Source: a virus. Taken from it: DNA of 35,641 nucleotides. The notes below the pieces were generated by a model. That model made no database searches, had not been told where the DNA came from, and was given only the letters and a program-made list of their open reading frames with translations. The stretch lies in the UHGV virus genome UHGV-0194711, one strand, 5' to 3'. Shown here one piece after another: positions 4,540-35,433 of this stretch; position 1 is the stretch's first letter; each line of letters begins with the position of its first letter. Position numbers and translations under genes: made by a program.

Positions 4540-6150
4540 CTAGTAATCTACGGCGACCATGTGATCGCCATCATTTGGTTGCCAATGTTCCCGCGCCTGT
4601 GCGGTCGGAATCCCGACCAATTTACCAATGCGCACTGGTGTTGAGCTGATTGCGCCAGAGCCAGAGTCGATAAAGTCATCTGGCTGATTAGTCAGCGCCG
4701 GGTTAAAGTCGCGCATCTGGTCATACATTGGGCCGTCGAGCACGTCGGTATGCGCCCAGAGGAAGCGCGACGACAGCGGCGCTTCGAATGCATCGAGGAT
4801 GCGCTTTTGTTTATTGGTCACGCTGAATTCTTCCCGTACGCCGCAGCCGGTACCCTTTAGTGCCTGAATCAGCAATTTCCCGGCAAAGCTGCCCGGGCCG
4901 TTCACCTCGACGCAGACCAGCGGGATCTGGTATTTAAGCACCAGCTCTTTAATCTGCATCACCTGACCGCCGGTGATTTTGTCGTTGTCGTCGAATTCCG
5001 CCAGTTCGCCCGTAAGCCCCTGGCAAACATGCCAGTACAGATGCCCGCGTGCGTCGGTGAAAATCAGAGAGAACGCCGAGGCGTCGGCCTTAACTTTGCC
5101 GGTGGCCACATCCCACCAGGCAACAGCACCAACAATTTGCGTCTGGCCAAGCCACATCGAGCAGGAGCGGTTCGCGTACCGGATTTCAGGCTGTACGTTG
5201 TATTCGCGTATGCGGTCGGGATCGAGACGAACCTCGCCAACCGGTTTACTGTGCAGCTGGTACTGGCTGTCCCATTCGTTAATTGTGCGAGTCTCGCGAC
5301 GGCGCTTTGTCATTTCCTCCGGAGTGAACCTTTCTGGCCATTCACAATCGGCGTAACAGTCAACCGTGGTGCCGGGAGCCTCGGCAAACTCGATACCGTC
5401 ATCGTTAAGACGATAATCAACACCTTCAACGAGCAGTCGCGCGCCAATGTGAATACCGACGAAAACATATTCCGGCCGGAACGGTAACGAGTAACGGCTC
5501 GCAGTGGCCTGTTTTTCCTCGATTCTAAATTCTTTACCGAATAGTTTGATGGTCAGACAGTCGGCGCCCATAGATTCAACCTCATCGTAAAGGCTATCGT
5601 GGGTATGCGGCGTGCCGATAAACAGCTTTCGCCCGCCGGGGACAAGAATGTGTGTCTGTTCACCGAGACGATAACGCAGCTTTTCCCGCGCCTCTGGCGT
5701 CTGGATATTGCGGGGTACTTCTACGTCATCGTTCTGGCATTCATCAGCGCGGGCCGAGGTAACGTTAGAGAGGATCCCCTTTGCGTACATGCTGCCGTTA
5801 CGCATATCCAGAGAGCCGTTAACCCACCACTGTTCAACGGTTCCCTGTCCGTCCGGTAGCATGCCTTTGGTCAGTGGGTGATTGCGTAAAACGTTCTGCG
5901 TATCGCGGCTGGTTTTGTACGCGGTGCCGTCAGCTTCAGACTGGTGAAGAATGCGGTACTGGCGGTTCTGGTAATATCGCCATGCGTTATACACCGCCAG
6001 AATGGTAGATTTACCAAAGCCACGAAAACAGCGAAGCACCGCGAGATCCCCGCGGTGTTCCAACCAGTGGCAGGCTCGATAATGGCAGTCGGGAACCTCC
6101 CACCCCATCCGCTCCGCCCATATGATGAAAAAGGCGACGAATGAAATCAT
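4540..6150 (-). CDS. Terminase large subunit (T7 gp19-like DNA maturase B)
   Basis: 536 aa. LRCFRGFGKSTILAV Walker-A region aligns with T7 gp19 LQAFRGIGKSFITCAF from memory. Size and position next to terS are consistent. Confidence 0.85.
   Translation of the reverse strand: MISFVAFFIIWAERMGWEVPDCHYRACHWLEHRGDLAVLRCFRGFGKSTILAVYNAWRYYQNRQYRILHQSEADGTAYKTSRDTQNVLRNHPLTKGMLPDGQGTVEQWWVNGSLDMRNGSMYAKGILSNVTSARADECQNDDVEVPRNIQTPEAREKLRYRLGEQTHILVPGGRKLFIGTPHTHDSLYDEVESMGADCLTIKLFGKEFRIEEKQATASRYSLPFRPEYVFVGIHIGARLLVEGVDYRLNDDGIEFAEAPGTTVDCYADCEWPERFTPEEMTKRRRETRTINEWDSQYQLHSKPVGEVRLDPDRIREYNVQPEIRYANRSCSMWLGQTQIVGAVAWWDVATGKVKADASAFSLIFTDARGHLYWHVCQGLTGELAEFDDNDKITGGQVMQIKELVLKYQIPLVCVEVNGPGSFAGKLLIQALKGTGCGVREEFSVTNKQKRILDAFEAPLSSRFLWAHTDVLDGPMYDQMRDFNPALTNQPDDFIDSGSGAISSTPVRIGKLVGIPTAQAREHWQPNDGDHMVAVDY
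4603..4618. promoter_or_regulatory. Copy B of recurring inverted-repeat motif GGTCGGAATCCCGACC, inside the 3' end of terL, ~80 bp upstream of tailspike start
   Basis: Perfect 6 bp stem / 4 nt loop palindrome; same core as copies A, C and D. Confidence 0.5.
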
Positions 6151-6488
6151 TTTTTCCGCTGTTGTATGCGTTCGATAACTTCCTGTGCTGCCCGTTCAGC
6201 CGCAGATACCTGTTGCCCCAGGCGGAATGCTTCATCGTCCGGATCCTCGCCGGGTTTAGGCGTCCCCCCGCGCGTATGCATGCCAATCAGCGAATGGACT
6301 TTTACCAGCAGCGTCAGCGATGCGGCCGCGTTCTTCTTATGCCAGTACCGATCACCGCGTTCCTGTTTAGTGTGCTTTGTGATTTCCTTCCCTGCCCCCG
6401 GCCAGTTATCCGGATCGGCTTCTTCCAGAACTACGTCGGTGAGCTTATCGCTAAGAGCAGTAAGGCGAGTTTTGTAATCTGAATGCAT
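6147..6488 (-). CDS. Candidate terminase small subunit (DNA maturase A)
   Basis: 113 aa charged protein immediately upstream of terL with ATGA stop/start overlap (translational coupling). Positional inference only. Confidence 0.45.
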   Translation of the reverse strand: MHSDYKTRLTALSDKLTDVVLEEADPDNWPGAGKEITKHTKQERGDRYWHKKNAAASLTLLVKVHSLIGMHTRGGTPKPGEDPDDEAFRLGQQVSAAERAAQEVIERIQQRKK

Positions 6489-6535
6489 AAAAAAGCCCCG
6501 TGTTTATCCATAGGGCTATGATGTGTCGGCTTAGA

Positions 6536-6550
6536 GGTCGGAATCCTGAC
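6536..6550. promoter_or_regulatory. Copy C of recurring inverted-repeat motif GGTCGGAATCCTGAC, ~48 bp upstream of candidate terS start
   Basis: Same 15 bp core as copy A, with matching flanks (tagtcaggattccgacct on the transcribed strand). Confidence 0.5.
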
Positions 6551-6641
6551 TATTTCTAATCTAATTATAAAATTGATCGCTGTATGGTTTTTTGTTAAAT
6601 GTTTCTTATACCTAACACTCAGCTAAAGGCGTTTATTTTTC

Positions 6642-7076
6642 ATGAAAAAAATTGGTCTAATTTCGATATTAGTAATGATCTCACATCCGGCATTCGCAGC
6701 AGATAAGTGTAAACCAAACTTAACTGAGTTTGATGTATGCGAACAGGCTCAGAAAATCGTCACTCAGGTACGCCCCAGACTGCCCTTAACGTTATCAGAA
6801 AACGTAATAATGAAAGATGTTTCTGCTGATGGAAACAAAATAATCGCGCAGGTAAGGCTAGGCGTAACCGAAGAAGAAATGCTGGCTACCGCTTCAGAGA
6901 CCCATACTTCAATCGACGTTGCTAAATCTCGAATGGATGAAATAACAAAAAATGGGTTATGCACGAATAAAAATCCACTGGGTTCATTCATTAGATTAGG
7001 TGGGGAGATGCAATATGTTTACACCTACCCCTCCGGAACATTCTTCAATGCAGTTACTGTTAGTTCGTGTAACTAG
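6642..7076 (+). CDS. Secreted/periplasmic hypothetical protein (signal peptide, four Cys), opposite-strand low-GC moron inside the virion module
   Basis: MKKIGLISILVMISHPAFA signal peptide with AFA-A cleavage-like site; ~40% GC; opposite strand to all flanking structural genes; promoter-like TTGATC-N16-TTAAAT upstream. Confidence 0.65.
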   Translation: MKKIGLISILVMISHPAFAADKCKPNLTEFDVCEQAQKIVTQVRPRLPLTLSENVIMKDVSADGNKIIAQVRLGVTEEEMLATASETHTSIDVAKSRMDEITKNGLCTNKNPLGSFIRLGGEMQYVYTYPSGTFFNAVTVSSCN

Positions 7077-7080
7077 GCTA

Positions 7081-9984
7081 TCAACGCATACCGGGATCGA
7101 CCTGGTTAATCAGCGGCGCGATCCAGAACAGGTTATTGCCCGGTAACAGCGTTCGCGCGCTATGCAGGACCCGGTCTCCAGCGTCGCCATTCAGCACGCC
7201 AGCGGTCACATCGGTTACAGTATCCAGCAGGCCAAAGGTTGGCCCCAGAGCAGAACCGATAAAGCCGCGGCTGGCATAACGGGATTGCGTACCGGTGCCG
7301 AGCAATGGCCCAAGTCCTATCATGCCGCCAGATGCCTTTTCCGCCATGTTGTTGTATTCCATCAGCGGGCCGAGGATACCCGAACGGTCGATACCCTCTA
7401 GTACCATCTTCTGCGGCGTCAAATCAACCTCGCGACCGTTAGCCGCCTGCTTAAGCGCATAGGTCAATGAGCCCAGGCCAATCTGGAAGGCGGTACCGTA
7501 ATAGAATTGCGCGGTACCTTCCTGCAGGCCACCGAGCGTCGCGCGGTTATAGGATGCCGTAGCAAAAGACTTAAACTGGAATACAGTTTTCCCCAGCGGG
7601 GTACTGGCCCATAGCGGCGTATCACCGATACCCGGCGTGATAACGGTATTGTTTACGTCTTTCAGTACCGCAGATTGCAGCAAGCCGGCGGCGTACTGGT
7701 CATCCCATTTTTCGAAATTGCCGATATGCCAGCCCTGAATGACTTCGCCGTGCTTCTGAAACTCTTTCTGGATGCGTTCGGCCATTTTGTCATTGATGCC
7801 GAGCTTAGCCAGACGTTTCGCCGGGAACGCACCTGACAAAATACCGTCTGAAGTAATCATGCCATTTACCGATTTGTTCATGTCGTCAAAGTGGCCCATC
7901 ATGGTCAGCTTGCCGAACACATCGGTAATGCGCTCCATGCCCGCTTCGATCGCAGTGGTGCGCGAAGAGCTATCCACCAGATCGCCCATCGTACGCGAGC
8001 GGGTTTGAAGAATAGTTTCCAGCCCTACAGCCATTTTCTTCTGCTCCGCCCGGCTGGCGAGGTAAGCCGGTGATCGAGTGATCAGCGCGCCATATCCACG
8101 CATGGTATTGCTGAAGCCGTTAACCATCATGCCGCGCGCCAGATCCGGAATAGCGGATACCGTCATGCCACCGAGTTTCGTTACAAAGTTGGCACTACGC
8201 AGGAAAGCACCGGCGCGAACGAAAAATGATGATGGATCATCCGGCATACCGTAGGTTCCAACGAGGCGATCGCGGAGCGCCAGAATATCGCGCAGGTCGG
8301 CTTCGCGCGCCTTCGCCAGCTTTTCCTGTTCTGCCGGGCGTAAACGCATCAGCGCGTCGTATTCGTCCTGGATGGCGGCAAGCTGCGAATCCAGCGATTT
8401 GTTGCCAAAGGTGCGGGTTAATTCGATCTCCGCTGAGGCTTCGCGGATATGACGCTGCAGGACGTAATTTGCATCGCTCTCCAGATAGTCTTTCATCAGA
8501 CGATCGGGAACACTCAACGTACGCGATTTAGTGCTACCCGGCGCTTTCACCATAAAGACGTTGGCGAACTCCTGCGGAATTTTGGCCCCGACAATACGGT
8601 TAATAGTGGTATCGGCGGCGATTTCGGCATCTTCGCGGGACATGGTTTTCTCACCGCGTGACCACCAGTCAACCAGCATATTGCGGAATTTATCGCGCTC
8701 GCTAACGATTTTCCCCACCTTGTACACGCGCGGGAAATAGCTGGTCTGCCCCATCGCTTTCAATTCGGCATCCGGCGGGAGTAAGCCCAGTTCCTGCTGG
8801 GCTGTCTTCACGCGGTTAATGACCGTACGCATTGCCTGCGCCGCTTCCTGCACTTTCGCATTAACGTGCACGTCGCCGTTACGCAGCGCCTCACCAACCT
8901 GTTCACGGAAGGCCGTATAACCCAGATCGCCGCCCTCGGCTTTATACTGGGTGTATGCCTGCTTATTAGCAGTAACGACGGCCGCCTCTTCGCGGCGCCA
9001 GCCACGTACGCGCGTCTCGGCAGCTACCGGAGTTTCGATACCGCGCAGGTTGCCTTCCAGCGTGAAGTTATTCTCCGCCAGCTCCAGCGCTGTCCGGCGC
9101 GCTTCTTTTGATGGGGATTCCATCAGGCGGGTGATCGGCGTCAGATAGCTACCGGCCTTTTTAGCCAGCTTGCCGAGCGGGCCGCCGGACACTGGCGTGA
9201 GGTCTTCCAGCGTCGCCTCGCGAATACGCATAGCGCCGACGCTGCCACCGTTCGGTAAAGTATCCGCCAGGGCGTCGGCTGCGTTATTAATCGTTGGCGA
9301 GGCATTCATATTATCGAGCGCCTCGGCTACTTCCCGGGTTGCCGCATTTCTTACCGATGGGGTGATCATAGCGCCAGCAGTAGCAAATACACCGCTGAGA
9401 AGTGCGCCGGCTGTGATATGCGCGGCACTCTCCCTGGCTGTTCTGGTATACTGTTCGTTGTTGAGCACAACCTCGCTAAGCGCGGTACCAGCAGCACCGA
9501 TAGCAACCTGCGAACCAATGCGCGCAACCAGAGTTCCCTGGGCGCCGGGGATGAACATCGAAGCCACCGTGACAGGATCGATAGCCCCAGCAGCGATACT
9601 GGCTAAAGTTCCCTCTGTGCCAGCCTCGGACAGTACACGGCGGTCTTCGTTTTCATCGTCAATCTGGTTTTTAATCCAGGCTGTTTCTTCTGGTGACTGA
9701 GAATCTGCGAAAGCAGATCCCCATTGCTCATAGCCGTGAATTTCATTCTTATCAGCGTAAGGGTTATACCCTTCAGCCGGTTCAAATTGTTTTGCAGGCC
9801 GAAAAATCCCTGCTAGTAGGTTATTCTGTCGGAATGCAGCGCTCCATACGGACGGTTGTGGCGGTTGAGGTTCCGGGTTTGCACCTTCAGGTAAATCAAT
9901 ATCGAACCCTACTGGGGCATCCAGGGCGCTACCAGCAGGTATATAACCATTACTGAATTCGCTGGGTGTGGGGTAAATTGGCAT
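7081..9984 (-). CDS. Internal virion (core/ejection) protein, large (T7 gp16-position)
   Basis: 967 aa, Ala/Gly-rich, last large gene of the internal-protein block before terminase. Positional analogy to T7 gp15/gp16. Confidence 0.6.
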   Translation of the reverse strand: MPIYPTPSEFSNGYIPAGSALDAPVGFDIDLPEGANPEPQPPQPSVWSAAFRQNNLLAGIFRPAKQFEPAEGYNPYADKNEIHGYEQWGSAFADSQSPEETAWIKNQIDDENEDRRVLSEAGTEGTLASIAAGAIDPVTVASMFIPGAQGTLVARIGSQVAIGAAGTALSEVVLNNEQYTRTARESAAHITAGALLSGVFATAGAMITPSVRNAATREVAEALDNMNASPTINNAADALADTLPNGGSVGAMRIREATLEDLTPVSGGPLGKLAKKAGSYLTPITRLMESPSKEARRTALELAENNFTLEGNLRGIETPVAAETRVRGWRREEAAVVTANKQAYTQYKAEGGDLGYTAFREQVGEALRNGDVHVNAKVQEAAQAMRTVINRVKTAQQELGLLPPDAELKAMGQTSYFPRVYKVGKIVSERDKFRNMLVDWWSRGEKTMSREDAEIAADTTINRIVGAKIPQEFANVFMVKAPGSTKSRTLSVPDRLMKDYLESDANYVLQRHIREASAEIELTRTFGNKSLDSQLAAIQDEYDALMRLRPAEQEKLAKAREADLRDILALRDRLVGTYGMPDDPSSFFVRAGAFLRSANFVTKLGGMTVSAIPDLARGMMVNGFSNTMRGYGALITRSPAYLASRAEQKKMAVGLETILQTRSRTMGDLVDSSSRTTAIEAGMERITDVFGKLTMMGHFDDMNKSVNGMITSDGILSGAFPAKRLAKLGINDKMAERIQKEFQKHGEVIQGWHIGNFEKWDDQYAAGLLQSAVLKDVNNTVITPGIGDTPLWASTPLGKTVFQFKSFATASYNRATLGGLQEGTAQFYYGTAFQIGLGSLTYALKQAANGREVDLTPQKMVLEGIDRSGILGPLMEYNNMAEKASGGMIGLGPLLGTGTQSRYASRGFIGSALGPTFGLLDTVTDVTAGVLNGDAGDRVLHSARTLLPGNNLFWIAPLINQVDPGMR

Positions 9985-12695
9985 TATTCATTACTCCATG
10001 AAAAATAATTTTTCGTACGTTCAAGTCGCTCATCATGCAAACGCTGGTACTGCTCATCCAATGCTCGATGTTTCGCTTTAAATCCGCGAATATCTTTTCC
10101 GCGCGAAATTTCATCCTGTTCTTTCTGCTCTCGTTCCTTCTGCATTTTCTGGTAAGGCCCCCATTCCTCTAGGGATGGCCTCCACCGCATTTGCCTACCA
10201 AATTTGTCGTTATAAGGCTGTGCCTTTTCATTACCATCTTTATCCTTAAAGCGAATCCAAATTGCATAATCTTTAATTCTTGGAGTATATACATCAGGCA
10301 CAATTTCCAATTCACCACCAACTTTAGACTCGGGGGTGTTTGAGATAATATTTGTTGCAGTTCCTGACGTGATTCCTAACTGCGTTGGGCTGGTAGAGAT
10401 CTCCTCATTACGCTCGCCATACATTAGTTCCTCTTTTTTTTCTTTCCACAGTTCAGCCTGCCAACCTGACGGACCAAAGTTATATAGTGCTTCTGGTGCA
10501 TATTTCATGAACTGGGCCTTGCCGTTCACTTCGCTAATGCTCCAGTTACGAGAGATTTGAGTGTTGGTCATTTTTTTGGCAATTTCAGAATTCCCACCAG
10601 AATTTCGATAGTTGATATCGTAAAGGGACTGGTAGTCATTTCGAAAATTAACTGCATCAGTTGTTGTATCGCTTGCCTTTGGATCAATTCTGAACCACTG
10701 AGCCATACTATTTCGAGCTGAATCCATAGCACTATCTCGCTCGCTTTTATATTCTTTAGTGCTCTGCGTCGAAGTTAACTGATTTTTTAATGCATCGTTC
10801 TGGTTATAGGTTATATTCTGTGCCTGTTTCACTGCCTCATCAGAAGCCATACCAGCTTCGGTCAATTGCTTAATTGTCAGATAAAAACTTTGTATATCTT
10901 TTGGCATATCACTGACGTTAGAAGATTTAGAGTCGTAAAGCCTATTGAATATTTCAGCGCCTTGCTTCACTACATCTGAGCTACTGGAGCGGGAAATAGC
11001 ATTGAGCTGTGATGTTACCTGCGACGGAACAATGCCGGTCTGGTTTACCTGCTGTACGATAGCATCGTGGGTGGTTGCATCGTTAATGCGGAAATTAAGC
11101 GCCGATGGCGTATTGTCCGCCGCCCTCTGCATAGATTTATTGCTCGGGTCGAGTTTCTCGCCGGAGAGCAGCGCATCGTTAAAGCGGGCGGAGTCGCGCT
11201 GCGCCTGAATATTGGCGTTGCTCTTCTGCACCAGCGCGCTAAGTTTGCCGTGTGCATCAAGTTTTAGCGCAAAATCGGGATCGTTTGCCTGCGGCTTCAC
11301 CTTCGCCAGTTCGGCCTGCTGTTCTGCCGGGGTGGCGTACTGAATAGCCTGGAAGGTTCTGGCGTTATCAATCGCGATATCCAGCTGCTTGACCGCTGTT
11401 TGCCCCTGCTCACCATACGCAAACAAAATGGTGGAGGCGTTCGGCATAGCATCCGGCACCTCGCCGTTATACAGCTGCGCCATTGTATTATTGAGAATCG
11501 GGTCAATCTGCTGGCGCAGCGCCGTACGCTGCTGCCGGATCTGCGCTTCGGCGATATTGTCGATTTTGTTTACTGCTACCGGGTCGAGACCGGTTTTATT
11601 TTTGTTGTAGCGGGACAACCAACCGCGCGTTTCTGCGGGTAGCTGCTTAACGAAATCCGCCATCGAGATTTCGCCTTTGCGCGGGTCGCCCACTTTGGCG
11701 ATCAGTTTATCGACGTTACCCATCCCCCAGTTATACGCGGCCCCGGCCAGTGGTTCTGACTGGTATTTTTTACTGAGCTGCCCGGCATAATCACGCGCCA
11801 GCTGCGCATGCTGCACAGGATCGTCCGGGTTGTATTCCACGCCACGTTTAGCCGCCAGTTCTTTCCCTGTGTCCGGCATCAACTGAAATTCACCCTGCGC
11901 GCCAGCGGGCGATGTAACAAGACTACCATCCGCATTGCGGTGCTTACCACCGGACTCCACCAGGCCAACGGCGCGCATATCGAGTTCGCCGGTGCTGCTG
12001 TTAATCAACGTAAAATCGCCATTCAGCCAGCCAGTGGGATTGGTTACCGCGTAGTTCTGCGCGCGCTGCTCCAGCGCTTTTTGGTTCGCTTCTGATACCG
12101 CCGCGTCGATGCGCTCCTGCGGCCAGCCACGCGCCTGGCCATACATCTCGATCGAGTGTTTACGGGCGCTACGTATCAGCCCTGCCTGCATCGGATTATC
12201 GTATGCGCTGGCCTCTTGTTCGACGGAAGTGGTCACCGTCGCATTAAGCTGCTGCCGCTGGGCCTCATCCGTCTGTGCACGCTCGAAACCGCTGTAGGTA
12301 CTTGTCCGGCGTACCTGCCCTGCTTTCCACTGCGCATCAAAATAGTTTAACTGGTTGGGCGGTACGCGCTTCCGCGCTTCCTCGTAATCGCCAGCGTCGG
12401 CCTTATCCATATCGGTTACCACACCGGACGATTTAAAGCCCTGACGAGTGACCGTGGCGCCCGTCTCCGGGTTTTCCCAGCGGTCATTAGATTTAGCTTC
12501 CAGATCAGTCAGAATCGCCTGCGTGGCTGCCACATCGGCTTTATCCTGCTCATGCTGTACTTGTTCTGCTACCTGCCCTGTAGCGGTCCCAAAACCAGAC
12601 ACCGCATTGCCTATAGTGCCTACATTGCTAACAGCGACACGCGTCTGCTGTGCCTGCGGTGTCACATTACCAAAATTACCCGTTGGAATTCTCAC
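9984..12695 (-). CDS. Internal virion protein with lytic transglycosylase (SLT) domain
   Basis: 903 aa. SLT signature ES...S.AGAQGEFQLMP and AAYNWGMGNV around aa 240-330, as in the peptidoglycan-degrading T7 gp16 family. Confidence 0.75.
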   Translation of the reverse strand: MRIPTGNFGNVTPQAQQTRVAVSNVGTIGNAVSGFGTATGQVAEQVQHEQDKADVAATQAILTDLEAKSNDRWENPETGATVTRQGFKSSGVVTDMDKADAGDYEEARKRVPPNQLNYFDAQWKAGQVRRTSTYSGFERAQTDEAQRQQLNATVTTSVEQEASAYDNPMQAGLIRSARKHSIEMYGQARGWPQERIDAAVSEANQKALEQRAQNYAVTNPTGWLNGDFTLINSSTGELDMRAVGLVESGGKHRNADGSLVTSPAGAQGEFQLMPDTGKELAAKRGVEYNPDDPVQHAQLARDYAGQLSKKYQSEPLAGAAYNWGMGNVDKLIAKVGDPRKGEISMADFVKQLPAETRGWLSRYNKNKTGLDPVAVNKIDNIAEAQIRQQRTALRQQIDPILNNTMAQLYNGEVPDAMPNASTILFAYGEQGQTAVKQLDIAIDNARTFQAIQYATPAEQQAELAKVKPQANDPDFALKLDAHGKLSALVQKSNANIQAQRDSARFNDALLSGEKLDPSNKSMQRAADNTPSALNFRINDATTHDAIVQQVNQTGIVPSQVTSQLNAISRSSSSDVVKQGAEIFNRLYDSKSSNVSDMPKDIQSFYLTIKQLTEAGMASDEAVKQAQNITYNQNDALKNQLTSTQSTKEYKSERDSAMDSARNSMAQWFRIDPKASDTTTDAVNFRNDYQSLYDINYRNSGGNSEIAKKMTNTQISRNWSISEVNGKAQFMKYAPEALYNFGPSGWQAELWKEKKEELMYGERNEEISTSPTQLGITSGTATNIISNTPESKVGGELEIVPDVYTPRIKDYAIWIRFKDKDGNEKAQPYNDKFGRQMRWRPSLEEWGPYQKMQKEREQKEQDEISRGKDIRGFKAKHRALDEQYQRLHDERLERTKNYFSWSNE

Positions 12696-12700
12696 GTCAC

Positions 12701-13189
12701 TTACTCCGCATATAAACCGTATTTGCCTGTTTTTGCTTTTTTCCAGCCGCTGTATGCAGTTCCGCCAGCACTAAGTAATGAACTGCCAGCACTAATATTC
12801 CCCGCTGTCGCCGCATTACTGCCGCTGATCCTGTCGGCTTGTGCCTGCGCCTGCAGGCGATTAGAAGAATTCACGCCATTAAGGATTGTCTGATAGGCGT
12901 CCTGCTCCGCATCCCCTGCAATACCTGACGTGACACGGAGCGCCGTTCCCTCTCCCGTCTCAACGCCTGAAGCTGCCAACGCAGCATTGGCGGCAGATGC
13001 CTGCTGGCGACCGGCTTTACGAATACGCTCCGCTTCAACTTTTGCCGCTGCTTTTGATGCTTCGGCGTCGGCTTCAGCCTGCGCGGCCTGATAGTTCGCC
13101 ATTTTCTTTTGCTGCTGGCCGCTGGCCACTGCCCCGCCAGCAGCGAGAACCGAAGAAGCCACCAGTGCGATTTCAACACCTGTACACAT
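12701..13189 (-). CDS. Small internal virion protein (T7 gp14-position), membrane-associated
   Basis: Start taken at internal MCTGVEIALVASSVLAAGG (TM helix) 2 nt after the GNAT stop; Ala/Gln-rich coiled region. Track ORF extends to 13324 but that would overlap the GNAT gene. Confidence 0.5.
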   Translation of the reverse strand: MCTGVEIALVASSVLAAGGAVASGQQQKKMANYQAAQAEADAEASKAAAKVEAERIRKAGRQQASAANAALAASGVETGEGTALRVTSGIAGDAEQDAYQTILNGVNSSNRLQAQAQADRISGSNAATAGNISAGSSLLSAGGTAYSGWKKAKTGKYGLYAE

Positions 13190-13191
13190 CG

Positions 13192-13644
13192 TTAAACCTC
13201 CATCGAATAAAGCAGCCCGGTACGTTGCAGACCGAGGCGGGAATAAAGCTGGCCAGTACGTTCGGCATGGACGCCCGTGGTGATCCCCATGTTGATCACT
13301 GCGGCGCCGTGTTCTTTCGACCATTCGATAAATGCACGGGCCAGCCGTGGGCCCGCGCTGCCGCCCCGGTACTCCGGAGCGACGAACAGGCCATATTCAA
13401 ACGCCATCAACTGGCGGGAAAAAAACTGCTCCGCGATGCCGCCGCCGAGCCAGCCAATCACCAGGCCGTTTTTCTCTGCCACCAGCACGCATCCGGCGGG
13501 GGAATAAATCAGGCTCTCAGCCAGTTCCGCGCATTTGTCCGCGTCAAAGGGTGAGTTTTCGGAATAGCGGGATTCCAGGTACATCCGGGTTCCCAGTTCG
13601 ATAAGCGCCGGAATATCACCGGCGGTTGCATTACGGATCATCAT
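13192..13644 (-). CDS. GNAT-family N-acetyltransferase embedded in the virion module (T7 gp13-position)
   Basis: 150 aa with GNAT motif A (VAPEYRGGSAGPRLARAFIEW) and typical fold length; stop/start overlap with tail tubular B. Confidence 0.7.
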   Translation of the reverse strand: MMIRNATAGDIPALIELGTRMYLESRYSENSPFDADKCAELAESLIYSPAGCVLVAEKNGLVIGWLGGGIAEQFFSRQLMAFEYGLFVAPEYRGGSAGPRLARAFIEWSKEHGAAVINMGITTGVHAERTGQLYSRLGLQRTGLLYSMEV

Positions 13645-34187: not shown

Positions 34188-34433
34188 ATGAGACACGATC
34201 ACGACATCATCACCAGAGAGGAAATGATCGAACTGACGGGGACCCCACTTAAATCGAGGCAGTGTGAAGCGCTACGTCGGGCCGGTGTCTTTTTCATGGA
34301 AAGGGCAGACGGCCATCCTAAAACGACGTGGGGCCATTTCCTGAACCCGATTAAATACCGCAACCAGCAGGAAGAGACGGTGCGGGAGGAAGAACCAGAC
34401 TTCGGAGCTATCTTTAATGGCCGGAAAACGTAA
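34188..34433 (+). CDS. DUF4224-family protein (excisionase-like, upstream of integrase)
   Basis: ITREEMIELTGTPLKSRQCEALRRAGVFF matches the DUF4224 pattern typically found next to integrases; TIR GAGGAAAGACCATG variant. Confidence 0.55.
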   Translation: MRHDHDIITREEMIELTGTPLKSRQCEALRRAGVFFMERADGHPKTTWGHFLNPIKYRNQQEETVREEEPDFGAIFNGRKT

Positions 34434-35433
34434 GAACCCCGCTGATAACTGGATGCCGCCCCGCGTGTATCGCGGTAAGGCGGCGTATGAATTCAGGAAT
34501 AAAGATAACAAGGCTATCAGGCTATGTGCGCTCTCCGAGCCTCAATCAGCTGTATGGCTGGCATATGAAAAAGCCATGGGAGAAGAAGTCGAGCGCAAGA
34601 CGTTTCAGGCTCTGGCCGATCAATTCATGTCTTCCCCTGACTGGCAGGATTTAGCGGCAGAAACCCGCAAAGACTACACGAAATACGCAGGCAAAGTGTT
34701 GCCGGTGTTCGGGAAGGTTAACCCCGATAAAATTAAACCGGAACACATCCGGCGCTATATGGATCAGCGTGGCATGGCCAGTAAAACGCAGGCCAACCGG
34801 GAAAAGAGTTTTCTTTCTCGGGTATTCCGCTGGGGTTATGAGCGGGGTTACGTCCAGCATAATCCCTGTCAGGGCGTTAAGAAGTTCAAAGAGGCAGCCC
34901 GGGAGCGTTACATCACCGACGAAGAATACAAAGCGGTTTACGATGTTGCTCCAGACGTAGTTCGCGCCACCATGGAAATCGCTTATTTGTGTCTGGCCAG
35001 ACAAAGCGATGTGCTGGCTTTGACTGAAGACCAGATACGCGAAACCGGGATCTTTATCCGCCAGGGGAAAACAGGCGTGAAGCAAATCAAAGCATGGTCG
35101 CCACGCCTGCGCGCCGCTGTCGCCCTCGCCCGTTCCCTGCCGTTAAAGCCGGGTATCCGTAGCCTGTTTGTCATTCACCAGACCAGCGGCAGCAAATACA
35201 CCCGTGACGGTTTTAATTCACGCTGGCGCGACGCGAAAATCGCAGCGCAGGAAAAGAACCCACACCTGCAGATAGATTTCACTTTCCACGATCTGAAAGC
35301 GAAAGGTGTCTCTGATCTGGAAGGAAGCCTCGAGGAGAAACAGGCGATTTCAGGCCATAAGAATTCGAGACAAACGGCGATTTACGACAGGAAAACTAAA
35401 ATTGTGCCGGTTGTTGGTGGTCAGAAAAAATGA
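34417..35433 (+). CDS. int: Tyrosine recombinase / phage integrase
   Basis: 338 aa; C-terminal catalytic region HDLKAKG...GHKNSRQTAIYDR (H-x-x-R and Tyr); adjacent to tRNA att site. Confidence 0.9.
   Translation: MAGKRKNPADNWMPPRVYRGKAAYEFRNKDNKAIRLCALSEPQSAVWLAYEKAMGEEVERKTFQALADQFMSSPDWQDLAAETRKDYTKYAGKVLPVFGKVNPDKIKPEHIRRYMDQRGMASKTQANREKSFLSRVFRWGYERGYVQHNPCQGVKKFKEAARERYITDEEYKAVYDVAPDVVRATMEIAYLCLARQSDVLALTEDQIRETGIFIRQGKTGVKQIKAWSPRLRAAVALARSLPLKPGIRSLFVIHQTSGSKYTRDGFNSRWRDAKIAAQEKNPHLQIDFTFHDLKAKGVSDLEGSLEEKQAISGHKNSRQTAIYDRKTKIVPVVGGQKK

Follow-up and report, generated by a model that had tools for sequence, protein, structure and literature searches.

What does a small gene of low GC content contribute when it stands, in opposite orientation, among the virion genes of a temperate phage? 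We addressed this question for one locus of the virus genome UHGV-0194711, analysed here as a single stretch of 35,641 nt (the window), which represents a nearly complete temperate podovirus of approximately 35 kb. A first-pass annotation, made from the sequence alone, had pointed to a plus-strand gene for a 144-aa protein with a signal peptide and four cysteines, antiparallel to the late genes, and the open reading frame (ORF) at 6642..7076 bears out this description. The gene forms an optional cassette next to the gene of a gp16-like internal virion (ejection) protein, and its product is predicted to be periplasmic. Based on comparative evidence only, we propose that this product may be a prophage-expressed periplasmic superinfection-exclusion factor acting against the ejection-protein conduit, a reading to which we assign a probability of roughly 0.4.

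An optional cassette beside the gp16-like gene

The ORF starts at the first in-frame ATG and runs antiparallel to all flanking late genes on both sides. Its stop codon and that of the gp16-like gene are convergent and lie 4 nt apart. The slot between the gp16-like gene and its neighbour was surveyed in 80 IMG/VR loci in which the gp16-like C-terminus is at least 88% identical to that of the window; this C-terminal tail (...NLFWIAPLINQVDPGMR) is conserved. In 30 of the 80 loci the slot is empty, with a spacer of 58-67 nt (ca. 62 nt) from the gp16-like stop codon to the start of the next gene. Ten loci carry a member of the cassette protein's family and approximately 26 are filled by other cargo, while 14 have no small-terminase-position gene within 4 kb (a label that rests solely on the position of this gene upstream of the terminase large subunit gene, TerL), two of which also carry the family. 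Because relatives with empty sites exist, 6552..7080 can be identified as an inserted cassette. Alignment with the empty sites places its edges at 6551/6552 and 7080/7081, and in the empty sites the sequence ...GGTCGGAATCCTGACT(AA) runs directly into the gp16-like stop codon. The cassette is an optional prophage accessory gene in a hot spot, a moron as had been suggested from the sequence. The low GC content noted beforehand (ca. 40%) was likewise confirmed, with 40.5% measured for the ORF and 35% for the spacer upstream of it compared with 52% for the whole window.

Phage-borne homologues with 27-99% identity to the window protein were then compared. Every homologue that could be placed is convergent with the 3' end of a gp16-like gene, and it abuts this gene except in loci L023 and L024, where ca. 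1 kb and two ORFs lie between. Copies that are nearly identical were found in K. michiganensis and IMG/VR contigs, alleles of 43-57% identity in Salmonella Newport and metagenomic prophages, an allele of 36% in a metagenome-assembled genome (MAG), and alleles of ca. 30% in Serratia and Providencia phages. In the phages with ca. 30% alleles the gp16-like gene differs in length (1129 aa in Serratia) or is 40-48% identical to that of the window (L027-L029), and the other neighbours are anti-repressor or toxin-antitoxin genes, not terminase. Conversely, alleles that are 52-57% identical, with saturated synonymous divergence (dS), reside in backbones whose gp16-like genes are 94-96% identical. The divergent alleles look like old variants that were swapped as cassettes, not like the outcome of fast evolution in place.

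In two loci the upstream region is informative as well. The order in L042 is ant and arc in one direction followed, in the other direction, by mnt, a gene for a 212-aa membrane protein and a fusion homologue of the cassette gene, which is convergent with the gp16-like gene; a gene with a lytic transglycosylase (SLT) domain follows. The homologue in L023 is immediately preceded, in the same orientation, by an Arc-like repressor gene (E 8.5e-18), which is divergent from a P22-type anti-repressor gene (E 2.8e-43). The order in L042 and L023 resembles the layout of the P22 immI region. The mnt/arc/ant arrangement is present in these two loci and absent from the window.

Among the alternative cargoes listed in the survey, almost all have signal-peptide-like, lipobox-like or membrane-spanning segments. 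The idea that they are very distant members of the cassette protein's family was not supported (hhalign E 0.024-0.26). One recurrent cargo is a protein of ca. 211-236 aa (L002:688-1323, L042:2658-3296 and, in phage YeP4, L004:2012-2722) with an N-terminal transmembrane (TM) helix and a C-terminal cysteine-rich domain of CxxC repeats, which matches Stc1 just under the Pfam cut-off. In two loci its gene is the one immediately upstream of the AspS-like gene, and YeP4 carries it with no AspS-like gene; it may be a partner, or an exclusion gene in its own right. Other cargoes include a 130-aa signal-peptide protein from a prophage of E. coli 23GD11002 (L005:4151-4543) with a sub-threshold match to Rap1a, a type VI secretion system immunity protein (E 0.036), as well as lipoproteins related to a 115-aa protein of YeP4 and a secreted protein of 173-188 aa that is also found in phage TL-2011b (entry names of these further cargoes include L108). 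Upstream of the slot genes of a metagenomic relative lies a HigB/HigA-like toxin-antitoxin pair (L002:2-576), and SocA/Panacea and DUF7946/7947 genes are found near the Serratia homologue (L038, L039).

The encoded protein and its predicted fold

The N-terminus, MKKIGLISILVMISHPAFA up to the predicted cleavage site and AD thereafter, comprises a charged n-region, a hydrophobic core and an A-x-A site. An N-terminus of comparable Sec type was recognized in 78 of 85 relatives and a lipobox-like string in just one of them; in the window protein, AFA is followed by ADKC, which places the first cysteine at +4. No hydrophobic segment exists apart from the signal peptide; what remains after cleavage is a globular alpha/beta domain. 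As the signal is of Sec type and lacks a lipobox, a soluble periplasmic protein of ca. 125 residues is expected. Cysteines 23, 33, 107 and 143 are each conserved in at least 84 of the 85 family members and could form two disulfides. The mature domain conserves the pairs C23/C33 and C107/C143, an LP motif (47-48), F116-x-x-LGG and Y125/Y127. An Ivy-like "CKPxxC" reading of DKCKPN...C was ruled out on account of the spacing of 10 residues between the cysteines and of an unrelated fold.

Among 1.84 billion cluster representatives, HMMER retrieved 202 relatives at E <= 1e-3, most of them ca. 145 aa long with the same signal peptide and cysteine pattern. Ratios of nonsynonymous to synonymous substitution rates (dN/dS) of 0.09-0.22 between close alleles indicate purifying selection on the reading frame. 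Together with the number of relatives, this establishes a real gene beyond a chance ORF. The PHROGs family that it matches is annotated as of unknown function, and the source names of family members from Klebsiella, Salmonella, Serratia and Providencia read "hypothetical protein". A Pfam match to PNISR (E 0.016) and an NCBIfam match over 15 residues of the signal peptide were judged spurious. A tblastn search of 50,697 deposited phage genomes found no relative, and weak tblastn matches to plasmids (E >= 2e-3), including CloDF13 "protein K", were treated as chance.

The first-pass annotation had proposed structure prediction as a check, and AlphaFold2, given an alignment of the 85 relatives, yielded a confident model with a predicted local distance difference test score (pLDDT) of 92 and a predicted template modelling score (pTM) of 0.81. 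A helix (32-46) is followed by three strands, helices at 77-86, 91-106 and 112-118, and two further strands. Foldseek matched the model to the structures of PA3611 (3npd, E 5.7e-7), AspS (4ftf, E 5.3e-5) and EpsS (6i2v, E 9.7e-5). The model contains the AspS-type alpha/beta fold (alpha1, beta1-3, helices, beta4-5) together with traits of the PA3611 type, namely an extra helix after beta3 and a predicted Sec signal without lipobox. At the sequence level, hhalign against three AspS/EpsS sequences gave a marginal match (E 0.0018, probability 15%), which is in register: the LP motif after helix 1 and the cysteine before the penultimate helix coincide with those of AspS/EpsS. Three of the 85 members touch PF16549 (T2SSS_2) at E ca. 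1e-3, with one listed score of 17.9 bits against a cut-off of 25 bits. The window protein itself has no PF16549 match in Pfam, and no match to a PA3611-type Pfam family was found at E <= 0.01 in any of the 85 members. A profile search of PDB sequences lacked 3npd at E <= 10 and returned only noise, including tau fibrils, and the viral structures of BFVD held nothing below E 1e-3. Given that it resembles PA3611 in lacking a lipobox and in the three helices that lie between beta3 and beta4, the protein was placed under the AspS/PA3611 fold and not among the pilotins. We file it, on the basis of the predicted structure, as a putative new, sequence-distinct family of this fold.

Proposed superinfection exclusion and its alternatives

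A pointer to a target comes from fusion variants. Family member P0023 (290 aa), seen in four independent contigs and one IMG/VR contig, consists of a signal peptide, an AspS-like domain, a linker of ca. 20 residues, a copy of a gp16-like segment, a C-terminal TM helix and basic residues. The copy corresponds to residues ca. 3-104 of the gp16-like protein encoded by its own neighbour (38% identity, E 4e-19), and residues 3-145 of the gp16-like protein of the window are homologous to the C-terminal half of P0023. P0052 (287 aa) has the same architecture. The two are only 33% identical over their full length, so that the fusion architecture must be old and maintained. Among close relatives, the first 60 residues of the gp16-like protein are the most variable (62-72% identity, the rest ca. 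100%), and in a comparison of distant phages residues 61-110 form the best-conserved stretch within the first 800 residues. The copied segment includes this stretch (NPYxD..GYExW..FxDSxSPEETxxIKxQID). One of the 80 related phages has a mimic alone in the slot (L071:4903-5313, minus strand of the locus). It is a 137-aa protein that lacks a signal peptide and has its TM helix at the C-terminus; its identity is 54% to the C-terminal half of P0052 (E 3e-51) and 38% to the N-terminus of its own neighbour. When gp16-like residues 1-150 were used to search for further decoys, all matches were pieces of the full-length gene, either truncated or frameshifted. Three forms, the domain alone as in the window, the domain with mimic and the mimic alone, hence occupy one position, which is the pattern expected of parts acting in one process that involves the gp16-like protein.

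These fusions and the lone mimic argue for exclusion, as does the constant linkage to gp16-like genes, which persists where the identity of the latter falls to 40-48% and where a gene other than terminase lies on the far side. The sieA-like position in L042 and L023, the presence or absence and allele swapping at the slot, and a fold known as a helix-binding chaperone module point in the same direction. A further indication is the non-phage member P0008: an ApeA/PDC-S58 candidate defence gene is found at a distance of three genes, and a type IIG restriction-modification gene is also close by. In the mechanism we envisage, the protein would be made in the lysogen, in L023 and L042 maybe from an mnt-type promoter, and would reside in the periplasm. 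As T7-type internal proteins from a related podovirus are ejected into this space, the cassette protein would bind an exposed part of the conduit, with the gp16-like protein as the most likely partner, and stop channel assembly or DNA passage, resulting in exclusion at the DNA-entry step. Its action would be analogous to that of P22 SieA, but exerted by a soluble periplasmic binder. In the sister lineages with fusions, the role of a decoy would fall to the copy of the gp16-like N-terminus that is anchored in the membrane.

Several results weigh against this proposal. Neither PADLOC nor Pfam revealed homology to a characterised exclusion or defence protein. Gene-wide positive selection was looked for and not found, the dN/dS values given above carrying no arms-race signature, and no co-variation was seen between alleles of the gene and the type of the variable gp16-like N-terminus. 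An AlphaFold2 prediction of the natural fusion P0023, based on a shallow and partly misaligned alignment, gave no confident docking of the mimic (pTM 0.46, pLDDT 36-75 in the C-terminal half). The promoter-like sequence noted in the first-pass annotation has no statistical backing: a single sigma-70-like match was found where shuffled sequence gives 1.5 +/- 1.1, and it is kept solely among near-identical alleles. Many family members may reside outside phages. One of them, the chromosomal P0159 (27% identity), lies between sarcosine oxidase beta-like (DAO) and delta (SoxD) genes (L010:6740-11677), an odd site for an exported protein. Longer members (P0039, P0047, P0013, P0057, P0049 and P0061) carry extra modules, including Sel1, DUF1311/LprI-type, tandem domain copies and, as judged by eye, possibly AMIN-like N-termini; P0057 has a PF07007 match (E 2.5e-4), and for P0013 the source gives the name YecT/DUF1311. 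The sarcosine oxidase operon member and the fusions to Sel1, DUF1311 and AMIN-like modules suggest that the domain is a general periplasmic module. Finally, the slot accepts unrelated cargo, so that adjacency to the gp16-like gene could partly reflect a recombination hot spot. As separate observations, P0008 (36% identity) also adjoins a trio of radical-SAM, AAA_28 and HD-CE genes in a defence-island-like context (L034:2708-14444), and a scan of genome contigs gave a single locus, in a Xanthobacteraceae MAG, with a Sel1 fusion.

In a different explanation, the gene is host-fitness or virulence cargo outside phage-phage conflict, for instance a PA3611-like secreted factor or a chaperone of a host envelope protein, and occupies the slot only as a recombination hot spot. 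The many unrelated envelope proteins in the slot and the many members that are chromosomal or fused to Sel1/DUF1311 modules would fit this, and one report describes PA3611 as a secreted effector on epithelial cells (PMC8860233). The resemblance to PA3611 is at the level of the fold only (10-13% identity), however, and a hot spot alone explains neither the position kept beside gp16-like genes of 40-48% identity with different neighbours nor the repeated fusion to a copy of the gp16-like N-terminus; we consider this explanation rather unlikely. The target could also be an enzyme. The gp15-like internal protein, encoded two genes away, bears the SLT domain, and a periplasmic inhibitor of this virion transglycosylase would exclude phages by enzyme inhibition and not by conduit capture. 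Such an inhibitor would resemble T4 Spackle (Sp), a small Sec-exported periplasmic protein that blocks the gp5 lysozyme. Two family members (P0057 and P0013) do carry modules of the DUF1311/LprI "lysozyme inhibitor" type, and the window protein showed no fold or sequence similarity to the known periplasmic lysozyme or transglycosylase inhibitors T4 Sp, Ivy, PliC/MliC, PliG and LprI. We regard inhibition of the transglycosylase as unlikely.

Less probable still is a non-lipidated decoy pilotin that binds the S-domains of secretins, be they of a type II secretion system (T2SS), of type IV pili or the pIV protein of filamentous phages, and thereby excludes pilus-dependent or filamentous phages or alters secretion. 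The closest solved structures include the pilotins AspS and EpsS, the weak in-register alignment to AspS and the scattered T2SSS_2 matches agree with them, and secretin binding has been proposed for the non-lipidated PA3611 (PMC3542185). On the other hand, hosts include Salmonella and Klebsiella, in which, to our knowledge, the cognate pilotin is of PulS type or a T2SS is lacking, the similarity to AspS is marginal in sequence, no secretin was found among the genes identified in the window or in related phage loci, and neither the constant gp16-like linkage nor the mimic fusion is explained by binding to a secretin. We return to the exclusion of incoming podoviruses at the ejection conduit as the favoured reading. 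It also bears on the earlier suggestion of a lysogenic-conversion factor (superinfection exclusion, periplasmic inhibition or virulence), of which the optional cassette and the appearance of a Sec-exported product stand. Exclusion or periplasmic inhibition gains circumstantial support from the ejection-gene linkage, the sieA-like slot and the mimic fusions, while for virulence nothing emerged beyond the fold similarity to PA3611.

As a more tentative extension, and one that we hold to be somewhat doubtful, the AspS-fold protein, the mimic fusions and the lone mimic may together represent an undescribed class of "ejectosome decoy" exclusion modules in temperate podoviruses with T7-type ejection proteins. 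These modules would capture or mimic a conduit segment with a pilotin fold recruited as anti-phage binder, and the slot that follows the last ejection-protein gene would serve unrelated podovirus lineages as a general site for genes that block entry. A prophage moron likely conferring exclusion is of a kind already known. On a limited literature search, the family, its fold assignment, its fixed place beside ejection genes and the fusion to an ejection-protein mimic appear undescribed. Of the exclusion proteins that take effect after adsorption, few are understood at the level of mechanism, and for podoviruses with internal proteins of T7 type none encoded by a prophage is known to us, although no dedicated literature search was made on this point. 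For this family, the fold is predicted with confidence, a clear candidate for the target is at hand together with fusion variants pointing to it, and empty sites and allele swaps provide many natural controls. If the proposal is true, a pilotin fold would have been reused as an anti-phage binder, mimicry of ejection proteins would be a defence principle, and P22-like phages and the lineage of the window would have independently placed entry blockers beside ejection genes. The last of these would also aid the annotation of the many "hypothetical" envelope proteins in the slot and the prediction of cross-resistance when phages are used in therapy against Klebsiella, Enterobacter, Salmonella and Serratia.

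Flanking features and known systems

The window phage combines a T7-type virion module (portal, capsid, nozzle, terminase) with a DnaB helicase and an integrase, and its backbone is similar at the DNA level to Yersinia phages YeP4-6, which have been grouped with BPP-1-, BcepC6B- and Xfas53-like podoviruses (PMC8579659). A partial tRNA gene (Rfam RF00005, 35567-35641, minus strand), cut by the end of the window, adjoins the integrase gene (34417-35433, plus strand) and is probably the attachment site of the prophage. The gp14-like gene is located at 12701..13324; the cassette and its nearer neighbours are listed below.

Table 1. Coordinates of the cassette, its parts and the neighbouring genes in the window
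Feature	Position	Strand	Basis or remark
CDS, 144-aa precursor of periplasmic AspS/PA3611-fold protein (predicted)	6642..7076, stop codon included	+	phrog_8772, E 1e-67; model and fold match
Predicted Sec signal peptide (signal peptidase I, SPase I), residues 1-19, cleavage after AFA, no lipobox	6642..6698	+	sequence reading and heuristics over 85 relatives
Mature domain, residues 20-144	6699..7073	+	alpha1, beta1-3, three helices, beta4-5
Accessory cassette (moron): allele-specific 5' region and ORF	6552..7080	+	empty-site alignments; low GC
Backbone spacer, 63 nt, left boundary of cassette, outside cassette	6489..6551	-	kept in all relatives including empty sites
Sigma-70-like promoter match CTGACT-16-TAAAAT	6546..6573	+	9/12 consensus positions
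Small-terminase-position gene, 113 aa, left neighbour	6147..6488	-	phrog_9277, unknown function
Terminase large subunit (TerL)	4540..6150	-	phrog_38, E 1.5e-84; PF22530, T7 terminase RNaseH-like domain
gp16-like internal virion (ejection) protein, 967 aa	7081..9984	-	phrog_342, E 2.7e-194
gp15-like internal virion protein, 903 aa, lytic transglycosylase (SLT) domain	9984..12695	-	phrog_1044; PF01464 on orthologues in L001, L006, L007

The promoter match straddles the left edge of the cassette, with its -35 element within the conserved backbone and its -10 element within the cassette. At the other end, the 4-nt gap to the convergent stop codon leaves no room for a terminator. The backbone spacer contains the invariant GGTCGGAATCCTGACT at 6536-6551 and a hairpin at 6494-6517, followed by T6 on the minus strand and running into the ATG of the small-terminase-position gene. 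The stem still pairs through differing sequences in L007, L033 and L099, and its fold z-score is only -1.0. The hairpin looks like an intrinsic terminator or a translational element between the internal-protein genes and the packaging and lysis genes. Rfam gave no match in or near the cassette, and blastn against 5,426 E. coli genomes returned matches to the backbone spacer only.

With respect to characterised proteins, AspS-type pilotins are lipoproteins in which a central hydrophobic crevice binds the terminal amphipathic helix of a secretin S-domain (PMC3542185, PMC6532946). The window protein differs from AspS and EpsS (GspS-beta; PDB 4FTF, 6I2V and 5ZDH; PF16549) in that it lacks a lipobox and is therefore not an outer-membrane lipoprotein. 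It has three helices between beta3 and beta4, no C-terminal helix and an extra N-terminal pair of cysteines, falls below Pfam thresholds, and is phage-borne with no secretin partner nearby. PA3611, a non-lipidated periplasmic relative of the pilotins, has an additional helix after beta3, and its groove is open (PMC3542185). The window protein shares 10-13% identity with PA3611 (PDB 3NPD; QSregVF-type) and has no Pfam or HMM link to it. PA3611 is a conserved chromosomal gene without an established periplasmic function or phage association, whereas the window gene is carried by a phage.

The closest parallel in genomic position is P22 sieA, located between genes 16 and 9. Of 66 P22-like phages, 22 carry it, in types that share ca. 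25% identity; SieA blocks DNA injection, and escape mutations map to the ejection proteins gp16 and gp20 (PMC10883804). Like sieA, the cassette gene is an optional prophage gene in a slot after the last ejection-protein gene, exists as very divergent allelic types present in some phages only, and in relatives (L042 and L023, not the window) lies downstream of mnt in an immI-like region. Unlike SieA, a polytopic inner-membrane protein, the window protein is predicted to be a soluble periplasmic domain. We saw no sequence relation between the two, and the ejection proteins are T7-type gp14/15/16 here and gp7/20/16 in P22. The action of SieA on ejection proteins has been shown, whereas the function of the window protein is deduced from comparison. 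In its small size, signal peptide and predicted periplasmic site, the window protein resembles T4 Spackle and P1 Sim, small Sec-exported periplasmic exclusion proteins that act on incoming virions after adsorption.

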